In this document: piece by piece, positions 14,415-40,125 of the stretch | Position numbering within the stretch: position 1 is the first letter of the stretch | Layout: each line of letters begins with the position of its first letter | Origin: Squalus acanthias | Lineage: Eukaryota | DNA: 64,000 nucleotides | Assembly: GCA_030390025.1 (NCBI GenBank) | Contig: CM059431.1 | Location: 101,992,001 to 102,056,000 of the forward strand | Reading direction: 5' to 3' | The notes under the pieces: model-generated | What the model was told of the DNA's origin: nothing | The model's input: only the letters and a program-made list of their open reading frames with translations | The model's database searches: none | Position numbers and translations under genes: made by a program

Positions 14415-14583
14415 TGATGCGGAGATGCCGGTGTTGGACTGGGGTGGACAAAAGTGAGAAGTCGCACAACACCAGGTTATAGTCCAACAGTTTTATTTGA
14501 AATCACAAGCTTTCGGAGCTGCTGCTCCTTAGCAGCAGCTCCGAAAGCTTGTGATTTCAAATAAAACTGTTGGACTATAACCT
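14415..14583. mobile_element. Miniature Penelope family B fold-back insertion
   Basis: 11-bp TSD AACATTAATTG (14404-14414, 14584-14594); matches 21120-21238; perfect 53-bp inverted repeat 14474-14526 / 14531-14583. Confidence 0.85.
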
Positions 14584-16139: not shown

Positions 16140-16620
16140 CCGAAAACTCCTCTCAAATAACCGGCAATGTTGCCGAGTCGCAGTCGAGTCTCCGCGAACG
16201 CCGAGTGCTCCGAAAACTCCTCTCAAATAACCGGCAATGTTGCCGATCCCGAGTCCGAGTCCGAGTCCGCGAACGCCGATTTAGTCAGTAGGGGTACTTT
16301 TCAAAAGTGCCACTACTCGGCCTCCTGGCGCTGTCGCAAGTCCGAAACATTGCAGTAGCATGAGTAGATTCTCCCGCGCTGCCTGGAGTCTCTTCGGATC
16401 GGCCATTTTGCTGGGTGTCTCCCACGATGCTGGTAGTCTCTTCTGATCCACCATTTTGCTGTGTGTCTCCCACGCTGCTGGTACTGTAGTCTCTTCTGAT
16501 ACACCATTTTACTGTGTGTCTGCCACGCTGCTGGTACTGTAGTCTCTTCTGATACACCATTTTACTGTGTGTCTGCCACGCTGCTGGTAGTCTCTTCCTA
16601 GCCACCATTGTTCTGTGTGT
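16140..16620 (+). repeat. Subterminal direct repeats in the Tigger 5' arm
   Basis: CCGAAAACTCCTCTCAAATAACCGGCAATGTTGCCGA twice (16140, 16210), then about 4-5 imperfect 47-53 bp units CCATTTT(G/A)CTGTGTGTCT..CACGCTGCTGGTA..GTCTCTTC. Confidence 0.85.
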
Positions 16621-16661
16621 CTTTCCATCTTCATCGGCAATTATCTCCTCCATCTTGCATT

Positions 16662-18395
16662 ATGGAATTCCCAAAAGCTGGTCCAAGCAAAAGGAAGAGA
16701 GTGGTCTTAACTTTAAAACAGAAAATCGAGATATGCCAACGACTAGAAAGGGGAGAGAAGCGTATCAACATTATGAATGAATTCAAAATCGGTTCGTCAA
16801 CAATCTACGACATCAAATCGCAGAAGGATAAGCTGCTCAAGTTTTATTCAAGCTCGGAGACATGCAAGAGTGTAGAGAAACGGCGTACGCTTCGTAAGCC
16901 TAAGCTTGAAGAGCTGGATACCGTGCTTTATGAATGGTTTTCTCTTAAGCGTTCAGAGGGTGTTCCAATTTCCGGACCCATGCTCATCGAGAAAGCGAAG
17001 GAATTCTACGATAGGATGGAGCTCACTGACAAGTGTGCTTTCTCCGATGGATGGCTAACGTGCTTCAAGTTACGGCACGGGATACGACGACTCGATATTT
17101 CCGGGGAGAAGAAATCAGCTGATCACGAAGCCGCAGAAGAATACTGCAATTATTTCAATCGGATTGTGCAGCAACATGATTTGTCGCCAGCACAGATCTA
17201 CAATGCCGATGAAACTGGCTTGTTTTGGAGGTTTTTGCCAGAATCAACGCTTGCTGGGGCTAGTGAGGCTAATGCTTCAGGTTACAAGAAAAATAAAGAT
17301 CGTGTAACCGTGCTAACATGTGCGAACGCTGCTGGATCACACCGGGTTAAACTTCTTGTTATCGGGAAGTATAAAAATCCCCGTGCATTTAAAAATGTGA
17401 GGCACTTACCTGTTGAGTACAAAGCTCAAAAAAATGCTTGGATGGATAAGGAAATCTTCTCCGATTGGTTCCATCATATTTTTGTTCCATCTGTGAAGGA
17501 ACATTTCCGCAGAATAGGGAAACCTGAAGATAGCAAATGCATTTTATTGCTTGATAATTGCAGAGCCCATCCGCATGAATCCCAGTTGGTTTCGGGAAAT
17601 ATTTTCACCATTTATTTGCCACCAAATGTAACTTCTCTCATCCAACCCATGGACCAGGGCGTTATCCAAAATCTGAAGTGTCATTACAAGAAAGACTTCC
17701 TACGTAAACTGCTAAGCCAAGATGAGAATATTCAAGATTTGCAGAAGGAATACAATATTAAAGATGCCATCTATAATGTTGCATGTTCCTGGAAATTGGT
17801 GAAAGGTCACACTCTGAGGCAAGCCTGGCGCAAATTGTGGCCTTCTGTAATGTTTGCTGAAGGTTCTTCTTCAGAGGAGGAATTTCATGGGTTCAGTGTT
17901 CGTCCCAAGAAGAGTACAATAATGGAAATGGCTGGAATGGTGAAAAATGCAGGCCCAGCAAACCCTCTACGTCACCTCAGTGAAAGTGATATCGAGCAGT
18001 GGGTTGATGCAGATAGAGAAGTTGGTGTTGTGCATATGCTAAGTGATGATGAAATAATTCAGAATGTTTTGAATCCAAAGAAAGAAAAGGAAAGCGAGAT
18101 GGAAAGTGAAGAGGATGAGATTTCTGAAGAAGAGAAGATTTCTTGGGCTAAAGCTGCAGAAGGATTTTCTACAATCCTCAAATTTGCACAAGAAGTTATG
18201 CAACTCCATATTCTGCATTCCTCCTTTCTACAGAAAAGGCAAGAGTCCACTAAGCAAACCGACATCCGCAACATGTTTAAGAAAGCTTCCAAAAGAGTCG
18301 CAGCAGCGGAAGTGCCTGAAGAATCGGTGGAACTGCGTGATCCTGATGACCCAGCTGGCACGGATATTTCTGATGAACCAGATGACTCTGAATAA
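16662..18395 (+). CDS. Tigger/pogo (CENP-B/Jerky-like) transposase, 577 aa from the first ATG
   Basis: N-terminal [20 protein letters not shown]-type HTH (LYEWF...GPMLIEKA...FSDGWL), catalytic NADETG / LLLDN / QPMDQG with DD32D spacing, acidic tail; no stops or frameshifts. Confidence 0.93.
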
Positions 18396-19615: not shown

Positions 19616-20225
19616 GAAGTTCCCTCAAGCTAGTTAATTTTCATGAGGTACTGATGGGCACTAAATATGGATCTGAGTAATGAGCAGCCTTGGGAGTCTA
19701 ACGCATGGCCTGGCTAGGAGGCAAGCACAGGTGGTACTGGGTGCCAATAGTCTTCACTAATGCAAGGTGCCAATTCTCCATACATTGGCTTGCTTTACTG
19801 ATCCTACCACTTTAATTCCTTACTGTAAGGGAATGTGGCTTGGAGGTTCCCAGGGCTCACTCTCTCTCTTTGAGTGACCCAACCATTCACACCTGCCAAC
19901 AACTCTTAATCCTCTTGCATTTCTGTGGGGTGTTTATCAGCAGGAAGGCATGGAAGGAAAGTTCTTTAAAGTCATATAGTCACATCTGGTGATAAGCCAC
20001 CCTTTGATCAGGCCCGGGTAATGCAAACAAACCTACCAGATCACCACGTCACCGGACGTGTATTGTATTTGTTAGTTTTTTGTGGGGAGAGGAAGGAATG
20101 TTAACTGTGCAAGCCCAGTTCTTGGTTCAATAGCAAAATACTGCGGATGCTGGAAAACTAAAATAACAACAGAAAGCGCTGGAAAAACTCAGCAGGCCAG
20201 GCAACATCCGTGGAGAGAGAAACAG

Positions 20226-20262
20226 AGTTAACGTTTCAGGTCGAAGACCCTTCGTCAGAACT
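20226..20262 (-). ncRNA. Minimal type I hammerhead ribozyme motif (Penelope family A)
   Basis: Reverse strand reads AGTT-CTGACGA-A-GGGTC-TTC-GACCT-GAAAC-GTT-AACT: core boxes, stem II, palindromic minimal stem III, stem I AGTT/AACT. Confidence 0.75.
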
Positions 20263-21208
20263 GAGAAAAAAGCAGGAAATGAAACAGATGAAAAAGCAAG
20301 TTTGGAGGCTGGGGGAGGGAATAAAAGAACAAAAGGGAAGGTCTGTGAGACGTAGAGACATTAAGAGATACACAAGGCGAGACGAGATGGTAATAGGACA
20401 GGTTAAGAAACAAAAGATGGCTCAGAAGTGTGAAATGCGCTGGCAGGATGAAAGACAGCTGCCACGTGGGAGAGAGAAAAAAAGAGAAAAGGCACAAACC
20501 AAAAGGGGGGATAAAAATGGTAGGGGCCGAGGTTATAATCTGAAATTGTTGAACTCGATATTGAGTCCGGAAGGCTGTAAAGTGCCTAATCGGAAGATGA
20601 GGTGCTGTTCCTCGAGCTTACGCTGAGCTTCCGTGGAACAGTGCAAGAGGCCGAAGACGGTGAGGTCTGAGTGGGCATGGAGCGGTGAGTTAAAATGACA
20701 GGCGACCGGAAGCTCGGGGTCACCCTTACGGACTGAACGGAGGTGTTCCACAAAGCGGTCTCCCAATCTGCGTTTGGTCTCCACAAAGTCCTTCCGGACT
20801 CCATATCGAGTTCAACAATTTCAAATTATAACCTCGGCCCCCACCATTTTTATCCCCCCTTTTGGTTTGTGCCTTTTCTCTTTTTTTCTCTCTCCCACGT
20901 GGCAGCTGTCTTTCATCCTGCCAGCGCATTTCACACTTCTGAGCCATCTTTTGTTTCTTAACCTGTCCTATTATCATCTCGTCTCGCCTTGTGTATCTCT
21001 TAATGTCTCTACGTCTCACAGACCTTCCCTTTTGTTCTTTTATTCCCTCCCCCAGCCTCCAAACTTGCTTTTTCATCTGTTTCATTTCCTGCTTTTTTCT
21101 CAGTTCTGACGAAAGGTCATGATGTGGAGATGCCGGTGTTGGACTGGGGTGGACAAAAATGAGAAGTCGCACAACACCAGGTTATAGTCCCAACAGATTT
21201 ATTTAATT

Positions 21209-21247
21209 TTACAAGCTTTCGGAACAGTTCGCTCCTTCGTCAGGTAA
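21209..21247 (-). ncRNA. Minimal hammerhead ribozyme motif (Penelope family B, left arm)
   Basis: Reverse complement of the motif at 22005-22043. Confidence 0.72.
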
Positions 21248-22004
21248 GTTAGCAGTGAGAGAATCTTCCAGAATTCACAATTTAAACACAGACAAAATAT
21301 ATTCAAATCTTTCCCTACATCAAAGAGCATAGCCAAGACAATGAGATGTGTCCCAGGGGGTCCAACGTGTCAAACCACCTGCTGGCTGCATATCCTGTCA
21401 ATCTGTGTAGGTTCTTGTGTTAGTCTTTTTAAAAAAAAACACCTGGGAAGATGTCAAGTCACGTTCTGTATCGTGACATGAACCCGATATCGCGATTGAG
21501 GCCATCCTCATGAGTGCGGAACTTGGCTATCAGTTTCTGCTCTATGATTTTGCGCTGTCGTGTATCTCGAAGGCCGCAGGCAGGAGGGTTGCCTCCCAGT
21601 CGGGGAACACTTCAGCAGCCAGGGGCATTTAGCCTCGGATATGCGGGTAAGCGTTCTCCAAGGCGGCCTTCGAGATACACGACAGCGCAAAATCATAGAG
21701 CAGAAACTGATAGCCAAGTTCCGCACTCATGAGGATGGCCTCAATCGCGATATCGGGTTCATGTCACGATACAGAACGTGACTTGACATCATGGCTGGTC
21801 TTCCCAGGTGTTTTTTTTTTTAAAAAGACTAACACAAGAACCTACACAGATTGACAGGATATGCAGCCAGCAGGTGGTTTGACACGTTGGACCCCCTGGG
21901 ACACATCTCATTGTCTTGGCTATGCTCTTTGATGTAGGGAAAGATTTGAATATATTTTGTCTGTGTTTAAATTGTGAATTCTGGAAGATTCTCTCACTGC
22001 TAAC

Positions 22005-22043
22005 TTACCTGACGAAGGAGCGAACTGTTCCGAAAGCTTGTAA
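22005..22043 (+). ncRNA. Minimal hammerhead ribozyme motif (Penelope family B, right arm; sense to STK24)
   Basis: TTAC-CTGACGA-A-GGAGCG-AAC-TGTTCC-GAAAG-CTT-GTAA; stem I TTAC/GTAA, stem II with G-U pairs. Confidence 0.75.
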
Positions 22044-22092
22044 AATTAAATAAATCTGTTGGACTATAACCTGGTGTTGTGCGACTTCTCAT

Positions 22093-22126
22093 TTCTGACG
22101 AAAGGTCTTCGACCTGAAACGTTAAC
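22093..22126 (+). ncRNA. Hammerhead motif of family A right arm, stem I damaged by the nested insertion
   Basis: TT-CTGACGA-A-AGGTC-TTC-GACCT-GAAAC-GTT-AAC; the upstream AGTT is replaced by ATTT. Confidence 0.6.
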
Positions 22127-22458
22127 TCTGTTTCTCTCTCCATGGATGTTGCCTGGCCTGCTGAGTTTTTCCAGCGCTTTCTGTTGTTATCCCAGTTCTT
22201 GGTTGTTGCTCTTGTGACTTGGTGCAATTGATGCCTCAGTTTGAAATCTATTAGAGATCTGATTTGGTTTGTTAAGAGTGAAGCAAATCTTACAGCCTTT
22301 GTGTAAAAGCCAGTGGACTCTCTAGCAAGGCATTGGTAAATCTTATGACTCTTGTCTGAGGTTTTCATGAAACAATACTTGAATTTTAAACAGTTGCGAG
22401 ATTCTTCTGCCACCCTCCCCAAGACTCCGTGCTAAGGATAGGATAAGTGTGTATACAC

Positions 22459-24292: not shown

Positions 24293-25387
24293 TCTATAGG
24301 TTTATAATGACATGCAGCAGATAGAGGAAGGACCTATTTCCCTTGGCAGAGGGGTCAATAACCAGGGGGGCATAGATTTAAAGTAATTGGTCGAAGGATT
24401 AGAGGGGAGTTGAGGGGAAATTTTTTCACCCAGAGGGTGGTGGGGGTCCGGAACTCACTGCCTGAAAGGGTGGTAGAGGCAGAAACCCTCATCACATTTA
24501 AAAAGTACTTGGATGTGCACTTGAAGTGCCGTAACCTACAGGGCTACGGACCAAGAGCTGGAAAGTGGGATTAGGCTCGATAGCTCTTTCTCGGCCGGCA
24601 CAGACATGACGGCCGAATGGCCTCCTTCTGTGCCGTAAATTTTGATGATTCAGTCCTCAATTCTGTTTTACTCTGGAATGTAGTATGAGTATCTGAAGTC
24701 TCGTGCTATGAATAGGTTGAGTAACCCAGGGTGCTGTATAGGAAAGGTCACAAAGATACAAGCCATATCAATGCAAGCTCTTGGTGAATGGCTGTGATCC
24801 TGTATCAATTTTAATCTGAAGCCAATATCTTGCTGCTGCTTTATAGTGAGCAATTCAATAGACAGTATCAGTGAGGCGAAAAGGGCATCTCACTGGATAA
24901 AAGTGATTGGGAAATGCCCTCCTCTGGCCCCTCTCTTTGTCTTACTCCTTTTCTTCATCTCTTGTTCTGAAGTGTTTTTTCTTTTACCCTCATTCACAGC
25001 TCTGGGCAGGTTCTTCCGGAAAGGCAAGTGATGACAATTGCCCTTGTCTGGCAAGTTACACGACCCTTGTTTTCAGACACACTACAATCTTTTGGTGTGG
25101 TTTTAAAATCTCTTAAAGTCCAGTCATCGGTGGACTTTATAGTGCAGGTCCAGCTGAATGCTCCAGGTGTGCAAAAGATGACCCCAACAACCCCCATGCC
25201 AACAGGAATACAATGTGTATTGCAGCATTCAAGCTGATTGAGAGTTTAGTTCAGCCTGTGATCCATTATATAGATTAACATTTCTCTAATGCTTCATTTT
25301 GCGATAACATATTTGACTATTAAAGGAGTGATACACCATGGTATAGTGTTGTATAGTGATTCTACCAGTGAAAAGTTGCAAAATAAG

Positions 25388-25823
25388 GCCTTTCGGACTC
25401 AACATTGAGTTCAACAATTTCAGATCATAACCACTGCTCCCATTTTTTCAGATAGCAGGTGCTGGTAATAATTCTGCCATTCCCATTTACACCTCCTCTA
25501 GACCCATCCTTTGTTTCTTTACTTGTCCCATTACCATCTCCTTTTGTCTTGTCCCACCATCCCTTTTGTCATTTAATCTCTCCTGCCTTCCAACTTATCA
25601 CAGACCTTCCCTTTTGTTCTTTCCTCCCCACCCCTCCCCCTTTCCCTGCCCTTGCACTTGCTTAAAACCTGTTGCACCTCTAACTTTTTCCAGTGCTGAC
25701 GAAAGGTCATCGACCTGAATCGTTGACTCTGCTTCTCGCTCCACAGATGTGGCCTGAGCTGCCGAGCATTTCCAGCATTTTTTTAAATTTCAGATTTTCA
25801 GCATCTGCAGTGTTTTGCTTTTG
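25388..25823 (+). mobile_element. Penelope-like family A-related 3' end, degenerate hammerhead at ~25692-25728
   Basis: Begins with PFGLNIEFNNFRS coding; contains CTGACGAAAGGTCATCGACCTGAATCGTT; same tail as other copies. Confidence 0.75.
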
Positions 25824-38370: not shown

Positions 38371-39001
38371 GTAAGTGGTTTAAAATCTAAAGGTTTTGGG
38401 TTTTTTTAAAAAAAAAAGGGGGAGTATAAGAACCTTGGCTTCTGTTCCAAACTAAATGAATTAATTTTTTCAAACCACCCATATTCCCTAAAAGTTCTTT
38501 CCTACTGCTATGTTCCCAGGTTAACCCGATTCAAGCACATCTCCAATCCAGCTGCTGTCCTCCTGTTGAGTCCCTGAGCAGTGAACTAAGTTGTTTTAAG
38601 CCCGTTGCCAACATACCCGTGGGCACAAACGAGCATTCAATCAGTTTTTAACCCCACAAAGTGACAATGCTGCAGACTCGGAGACAATAACAGAAGAAAA
38701 TCTAGATTTTAAATGCCTCATAATATTGTGACCAATCTGCTTTTGATAACTGCTGCTGCACTCAACATTTTTCAGATGGAATAGGCTTTGAGTCAGATTG
38801 CTTCAAGATTTAACACAGTTCTGGGCCTGAATGAAATCTTAAGTTATGAATGGAAAACTCAATGGATGGAGAAAGAAGAAAGAAGAGATTGCATTTCTAT
38901 AGAGTCTTTCACGACCACAGGACGTCCCAAAGCGCTTTACAGCCAATTACGTACTTTTGAAGTGTAGTCACTGCTGCAATAACAAACGCCCAACTTATTA
39001 T

Positions 39002-39882
39002 TACAATAGCAAAATACTGCGGATGCTGGAAATCTGAAATAACAACAGAAAATGAATGGTAGGACCCTAGGAAGGACAGAGGATCAGAGGGACCTTGGTG
39101 TGCATGTACATAGATCCCTGAAGGCAGCAGGACAGGTAGATAAGGTGGTTAAAAAGGCATATGGGATACTTGCCTTCATTAGCTGAGGCATAGAATATAA
39201 GAGCAGGGAGGTTATGATGGAGCTGTTCAAAACGCTAGTTAGGCCACAGCTGGAATACTGTGTGCAGTTCTGGTTGCCACACTATGGGAAGGATGTGATT
39301 GCATTGGAGAGGGTGCAGAGGAGATTCACCAGCATGTTACCTGGGCTGGAGCACTTCAGCTATGAAGAGAGACGGGACAAGCTGGGGTTGTTTTTCTTAG
39401 AGCAGAGAAGGCTGAGGGGGGGACCTGATTGAGGTGTGCAAAATTATGAGGGGCATAGATAGGGTAGATAGAAAGGAACTTTTCCCCTTAGTAGAGGGGT
39501 CAATAACCAGGGGGCATAGTTTCAAGGTAAGGGGCAGGAGGTTTAGAGGGGATTTGAGGAAAAACTTTCTCACCCAGTGGGTGGTTGGAATCTGGAACTC
39601 ACTGCCTGAAAGGGTGGTAGAGGCAGGAACCCTCACAACATTCAAGAAGCATTTCGATGAGCACTTGAAACGCCATAGCATACAAGGCTACGGACCTAGT
39701 GCTGGAAAATGGGATTAGAATAGATAGGGCTTGATGGCCGGCGCGGACACGATGGACCGAAGGTCCTCTTTCTGTGCTATATAACTCTATGACTAAAATG
39801 CTGGAAACACTCAGCAGGCCAGGCAGCATCCATGGAGAGAGAAACAGAGTTAACGTTTCAGGTCGTTTCTGTTCTGATGAAG
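39002..39882. mobile_element. Miniature Penelope family A insertion interrupted by a CR1 3' fragment (39055-39794)
   Basis: 16-bp TSD ACGCCCAACTTATTAT (38986-39001, 39883-39898); inner CR1 flanked by AAAATG duplication (39049-39054, 39795-39800). Confidence 0.82.
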
Positions 39883-40125
39883 ACGCCCAACTTATTATGT
39901 TTGTGCTTGCGCTTGGGCATAATAATGCTGAGCAACTGACTGTTGACTCCAAAGAACAACTTTCTAAAGGTCAGGCGAGAAGTGCGTCAAGTTTTAGGAA
40001 GATCATCACCCCAAGGACCCATTGCAAAGAAATGTTTTTGCTTCCTTGATGATGAGAAATGATAAGTAGGTTTTACTTTACTATTTAAGAAGGAATAGCT
40101 AATATATTTTGTTTATTTTCTTAAG

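Follow-up and report, generated by a model that had tools for sequence, protein, structure and literature searches.

Penelope-like elements (PLEs) typically occur as an inverted, truncated copy with a tail of 30-40 bp at one side only (PMC8557442), and the insertion of one such element into another has been described previously, Pen2a_Av of Adineta vaga being located within Pen3 in the opposite orientation, where it serves as an example of the typical structure (PMC3846280). Families of the Neptune/Nematis type are marked by a CX2-5CxxC motif in the RT-EN linker, which is missing from the Penelope/Poseidon clade (PMC8557442), and minimal hammerhead ribozymes (min-HHRs) come in opposite-strand pairs separated by 100-700 bp (PMC4209133). 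A PLE protein is reported to cut and extend both target strands, starting at two sites of the RNA whose interval corresponds to the tail, and the protein of the anole element is predicted to be a dimer (PMC11167929). The manner in which PLEs make their head-to-head arms is still regarded as open in both PMC8557442 and PMC11167929. A literature search, supplements not included, turned up no description of a PLE that had entered, or that targets, the hammerhead of another PLE, and a search on Penelope-like or Neptune insertion in shark returned no paper.

The locus described here was found in a 64-kb stretch of the Squalus acanthias genome (referred to as the window), where it lies, on the + strand, between STK24 (MST3) kinase exons at ~7.3-7.5 kb (E 4e-40) and 28.4 kb. 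These exons are probably consecutive, judging from the kinase sequence. Two elements, an outer one (A, 20128-22190) and an inner one (B, 21119-22092), are composed of the following features:

20114-20127: left copy of the outer target-site duplication (TSD) of A, 14 bp, from repeat comparison
20128-20162, - strand: tail of A, 35 nt, at this end only, the putative long reverse-transcription start; such a tail is described in excerpts of PMC8557442, PMC3846280 and PMC11167929
20128-20789, - strand: long arm of A, 5'-truncated, which begins at the endonuclease YIG position and continues past the stop, the 3' region and the hammerhead into the tail
20230-20262, - strand: predicted minimal hammerhead of A, left arm (core 20234-20258), with a 4-bp stem I, a 5-bp stem II and an ACGU palindrome replacing stem III, as compared with excerpts of PMC4209133; no Rfam match
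20533-20789, - strand: C-terminal piece of the GIY-YIG endonuclease of A, ~85 codons, stop at 20533-20535, 61% identical to the relative P0002
20790-21118, + strand: short arm of A, 5' part, inner TSD included, from repeat comparison
21097-21110, + strand: target stretch matching B around its short 3' end at 11/14 bases when aligned as at the actual junction
21104-21118: left copy of the inner TSD (13-15 bp), covering the CUGANGA box and the 5' strand of stem II of A; a half motif without GAAA
21119-21158, - strand: tail of B, 38-40 nt, at this end only; B ends in other copies cluster at 21118-23 and 21151-62
21119-21577, - strand: left arm of B with the tail, comprising the last ~38 endonuclease codons, the 3' region and a hammerhead core (21217-21243)
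21578-22092, + strand: right arm of B without the tail, comprising the last ~66 endonuclease codons, the stop (21779-21781), the 3' region and a hammerhead core (22009-22035, AGCU palindrome); 91% identical to P0025
22093-22107: right copy of the inner TSD, restoring the A hammerhead core at 22095-22119
22108-22190, + strand: short arm of A, 3' part, without the tail, pairing with 20163-20245
22191-22204: right copy of the outer TSD of A, from repeat comparison

A sequence-only reading of this DNA had proposed that one Penelope element was inserted into the hammerhead core of another, and all of its coordinates hold, both TSD pairs, the arms and the closing helix being recovered by repeat comparison. 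The outer TSD, CCCAGTTCTTGGTT, is identical at 14/14 positions, and the inner TSD, TTCTGACGAAAGGTC, is exact over 15 bp; because the first TT of the latter is common to B itself, the true inner TSD measures 13-15 bp. A longer inner repeat with one mismatch (21/22 over 21097-21118 and 22086-22107) was weighed as a 22-bp TSD and set aside as the less simple solution, which needs a later G-to-T change at 22092, a position at which B itself has T. The inner TSD contains TT, CUGACGA, an unpaired A and the 5' strand of stem II, so that B indeed duplicated the CUGANGA box and one strand of stem II of A's ribozyme.

Both A and B consist of two 5'-truncated sense copies whose 5' ends are joined and whose 3' ends point outward (head-to-head). 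Only the left end of each bears a tail (35 nt in A and 38-40 nt in B), and the spacers of both hairpins represent the surplus 5' length of the longer arm. The previously noted layout of two adjacent, near-perfect hairpins closed by a third helix was recovered in full: 20246-20574 pairs with 20790-21118 (324/329 identical), 21159-21577 with 21663-22092 (418 matches, no substitutions and three indels of 10, 2 and 1 nt), and 20163-20245 with 22108-22190 (82/83 identical). The lack of substitutions in 418 positions between the B arms, against 6 in 412 between the A arms (a 98.5% identical inverted repeat), fits B being younger than A. Ten extra bases at 21782-21800 of the B right arm are missing from its otherwise substitution-free left counterpart.

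Hammerheads were sought across both strands of the 64 kb as CUGANGA...GAAA with a stem of at least three pairs, and the four matches obtained are all at this locus (20234-58 and 21217-43 on the - strand, 22009-35 and 22095-119 on the + strand), in agreement with the four motifs in 2.1 kb that the sequence-only reading had counted. On inspection they carry the min-HHR features, namely, both boxes, the unpaired 5' base of stem II, a short stem I and a palindromic 15.2-16.2. An Rfam search at E<=5 returned one unrelated chance match and no hammerhead, and the hammerhead folds are not significant against shuffles (z -1.15 to -1.61; 14 to 27 of 200 shuffles as good). In the predicted folds, B holds stems I and II, and A holds stem II only, the lowest-energy fold of A being a non-hammerhead. 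The inner TSD restores the A core at 22095-22119 at the cost of one stem I pair (G to T at 22092); judged from the letters, the A motif would have been weakened by the insertion of B, not removed. A ribozyme dimer combining A with B was also weighed but discarded, because the two palindromes (ACGU versus AGCU) differ such that the two middle positions would be unpairable.

Two GIY-YIG fragments had likewise been read at this locus, and both prove to be C-terminal endonuclease pieces without the GIY half, aligning to the C-terminal end of their relatives. None of the three endonuclease fragments matched Pfam (0/3), and the assignment was therefore made through the relatives P0002 (61% identical to A) and P0028 (83% to B), which pass the GIY-YIG Pfam cut-off. 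Skate and sharks supply the best long relatives of either coding fragment, the B piece being 91% identical to a Heptranchias protein, and the order within these relatives is RT, CX4CxxC linker and GIY-YIG domain. RVT_1 scores above the cut-off in P0025 and P0040 and below it in P0002 (E 9e-5), the window copies being 5'-truncated and without RT; the linker is carried by P0025 and P0040 on the B side and by P0002 on the A side, the window pieces ending before it. Because these close relatives carry the CX4CxxC linker, A and B are classed, by that motif, as Neptune/Nematis-type elements and not as members of the Penelope/Poseidon clade. An inverted 5'-truncated copy, a one-sided 30-40-bp tail and a short TSD are found in both. 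The nested A/B arrangement is a real and fresh example of an already known architecture. Of the sequence-only reading, the assignment to PLEs, the inverted pLTR-like arms, the minimal hammerheads and the relative youth of B all stand, and its undecided alternative of chance or targeting now gives way to evidence favouring chance; the 11/14 target match, the one-sided tails, the Neptune/Nematis-type linker and the rebuilding of A's core by the TSD are additions to that account.

The placement of B within the hammerhead of A was assessed by means of contigs from four runs of two individuals, aligned at 88% likeness to 20576-21662, a stretch which includes one arm per repeat and in which an allele lacking the insertion would escape notice. 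The runs derive from two samples holding 0.68-0.73 of the sampled words, 20/24 runs with small word shares having been left out. Summed depths reach 10^5-10^6 over both families, compared to 10-55 at single joints, and these summed depths, which are not copy numbers, hint at a very high copy number for both families. Fifteen of 67 joints were listed, four representing the normal continuation of A, four being skips inside A or B and seven connecting a B end to A; a second joint table, with 12 of 31 rows listed, contributes one more of the latter, making at least eight in all. The eight listed joints between a B end and A are positioned at 20612, 20619, 20638, 20760, 20780, 20786, 20833 and 20918, that is, 188-528 nt upstream of CUGANGA, and three of them are present in both individuals. 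A clear interruption of A is apparent at 20833 and 20918 only, and the remaining six of the eight may represent truncated A beside a B end. No such joint falls in the hammerhead core among the 15 of 67 joints and 12 of 31 rows listed, a comparison which is blind to an insertion at the focal base (collinear with the reference) and which spans an aligned stretch excluding the 3' half of A's hammerhead. Within the window, a further B-like copy (14415-14583, ~87-90% alike, with an 11-bp TSD) is located in unrelated DNA. Its hairpin folds back inside hammerhead stem II, and its short end lies ~59 nt away from the end of the tail, a more internal position than in the focal copy.

A rough chance estimate was derived from one window with 4-5 A-like hammerhead ends and 1-2 B copies, age order being ignored. 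A target of 52 nt gives an expectation of 0.7-2.6 chance events over 214 windows of this genome (P(>=1) 0.50-0.92), and one of 11 nt gives 0.15-0.55 (P(>=1) 0.14-0.42). Because the other B-like copy resides in unrelated DNA, the eight joints are upstream of the core and approximately one event is expected, we consider it probable that the nesting of two 5'-truncated, head-to-head PLE insertions, with B in the hammerhead of A, came about by chance, both families being crowded in this genome. Target specificity, understood as most insertions falling at one site of the host element, is not the pattern found, the one other in-window copy being elsewhere and the eight listed joints being scattered. 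The scattered B sites and the chance estimate together argue against strict targeting and leave room for a minor hot spot.

A less plausible account, which we regard as doubtful, holds that B prefers DNA resembling its own short start site, for which the hammerhead flank and first bases of A would act as a decoy; this could operate through recognition of self-like DNA by the nuclease or through annealing of primer and RNA, the ribozyme as such being irrelevant in either case. Aligned exactly as at the observed junction, target and B agree at 11/14 bases, a score of 11 being reached over any of 12 candidate ends at 97 of 127,972 window positions, although this statistic is post hoc, having been picked after the junction was seen. 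Within A, the focal site is among the best-scoring, and one pyrimidine run scores 11-12. Two reports speak in its favour, namely, cleavage by the anole protein at the ORF-pLTR junction of its own element (PMC11167929) and the requirement of the D. virilis nuclease for the tail sequence (earlier work cited in PMC11167929); initiation by the anole PLE, however, is reported at RNA positions that share no homology with the DNA being cut (PMC11167929). Furthermore, four of the five other listed short-end joints score just 4-6/14 (the focal A having been used in place of diverged copies), the fifth scores 9 with 12 other letters at the joint and is not comparable, the B-like copy at 14.4 kb displays no such match, and 7/14 of the compared bases are upstream of the presumed nick and, hence, outside any primer. 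That the second priming site is chosen or fixed by target homology to B's own RNA, such that the hammerhead flank of A is a decoy and its catalytic box a recurrent hot spot for B, is, in our judgement, similarly unlikely. The 11/14 match may be either luck or occasional homology-assisted priming, and the latter would account for the landing site without a role for the ribozyme. If true, this would mean that a PLE can choose its target by homology, at odds with the in vitro picture, and would afford a genome-scale handle on the priming of PLE inverted arms.

It is considerably less credible that B targets the hammerhead-encoding DNA of A, for example as a safe harbour or as a means of disabling a competitor. 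The inner TSD does cover the catalytic box, but there is just this one case, the remaining B sites are spread out, the core is restored downstream by the TSD such that the motif is weakened and not removed, and no literature report of PLEs targeting hammerheads was found (supplements not included). Even slighter is the likelihood that a cruciform or DNA hairpin formed by A's 412-bp inverted repeat drew the nuclease: B does sit within an arm of this long, 98.5% identical repeat, yet at a mid-arm site, 315 nt from the 215-nt spacer and away from the loop, where single-stranded folding of the local sequence is no stronger than that of shuffled sequence (z 0.46). The least probable of all is an assembly artefact, a concern raised by the trouble which long inverted repeats cause to assemblies (PMC8557442, excerpt) and by the lack of a contig spanning the A/B junction at 21118/21119 among 32 pieces listed (48,834 others), itself uninformative either way, and countered by exact TSDs at both levels, arms differing by substitutions and indels, ends that correspond to the two standard ends of the family, a layout that recurs in other in-window copies and the presence of 0.68-0.73 of sampled words in runs of two samples.

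Each of the two elements is likely to represent one event. The GIY-YIG nuclease would cut both target strands 13-15 bp apart, both 3' ends would then be extended, one from a long start (with the tail) and one from a short start ~35-40 nt upstream, and the two truncated products would subsequently be joined at their 5' ends. Two start sites of this kind are reported from in vitro work on the anole PLE. The two-start-site reading is backed by the clustering of B ends in other copies at 21118-21123 (3 joints) and 21151-21162 (5 joints), among the joints listed in the contig alignment, and by the focal ends matching both, the focal short end (21157-21159) falling within the second cluster. In this one instance, the 11/14 match may have determined the register of B's short end. 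An alternative origin of the arms, a fold-back copy of the first cDNA, would be indistinguishable here from two-RNA priming. Bases 20879, 20917, 20992 and 20994 are common to both A arms and unlike the majority of the aligned contigs, which fits one donor for both arms. Among the joints listed, one leads back within the B end from 21190 to 21150 in both individuals, and another from 21151 to 21120 with 15 other letters (depth ~100, one individual); these are possibly tandem B ends.

The focal A short arm (20790) and an older A-like copy (25385-25390) begin at almost one base, in both cases directly after a TTTACAG resembling a splice acceptor. The near-identical start could reflect a favoured 5' end (an RNA start, a splice site or a pause), represented by two cases only. 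An A-like mini-insertion at 38988-39894 has a 16-bp TSD and non-overlapping arms that meet inside hammerhead stem II, the classic twin-priming shape, and is interrupted at 39052-39795 by a LINE-like piece with an apparent 6-bp duplication.

The A and B copies at this locus are dead fragments. The + strand of STK24 pre-mRNA would carry two sense hammerhead motifs 86 nt apart; because the B motif would, by prediction, lie inside a duplex of >400 bp and the A motif can, by repeat comparison, pair with 20234-20258, cleavage within this pre-mRNA is unlikely. The A and B hairpins could be candidate editing substrates. The B-tail pattern gave no matches in metagenome contigs or in viral contigs, and its two matches in prokaryote genomes, which share just the 20-21-nt pattern, were dismissed as chance; the A-end pattern gave no matches in metagenome contigs. 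An uninterrupted 597-codon frame is present in the same intron (16602-18395, + strand). We presume it to resemble a Tigger/pogo (CENP-B-like) transposase. A 21-kb satellite (43134-63971; 25-29-nt units, ~760 copies) is situated downstream of the last kinase exons found.

The locus offers a clean textbook case of two young PLE insertions, each displaying both reverse-transcription start sites, and it does so in Neptune/Nematis-type families as opposed to the Poseidon element studied in vitro. Its import would be wider only if the 11/14 match proved general or the site recurrent, and the very abundant shark families would permit a direct count. As far as the excerpts of PMC11167929 extend, PAc, a Poseidon element from Anolis carolinensis, cuts both strands and has two start sites, features that account for the arms as well as for the two clusters of B ends; PAc, however, belongs to the other clade (Penelope/Poseidon, without the linker), prefers ATT and starts without homology, whereas the junction described here has an 11/14 match. 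Relative to the Neptune/Nematis-type PLEs with a C-terminal endonuclease, as portrayed in the excerpts of PMC8557442, the RT-linker-GIY-YIG order of the relatives, the inverted 5'-truncated copy and the 30-40-bp tail are alike, although linker and RT are known here from the relatives, outside the window copies.

The predicted hammerheads, identified from sequence alone, resemble the metazoan PLE minimal hammerheads of PMC4209133 (excerpts) in the 4-bp stem I, the unpaired base before stem II, G10.1-C11.1, the palindromic 15.2-16.2 without stem III and the occurrence of opposite-strand pairs a few hundred bp apart; their stem II is 5 bp, in contrast to 7-8 bp in the Schistosoma min-HHR families. 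With Pen2a_Av in Pen3 (PMC3846280, excerpts), the locus shares the insertion of a PLE in another PLE, the opposite orientation and the inverted terminal copy, and the one-sided 31-bp tail and 9-bp TSD of Pen2a_Av have their counterparts in the one-sided tails and short TSDs observed here. The paper on Pen2a_Av predates the description of the hammerhead and, in the text excerpted, does not place the insertion site in one. Pen2a retains its whole ORF and direct pLTRs, whereas A and B are short 3' fragments, both in the head-to-head arrangement.
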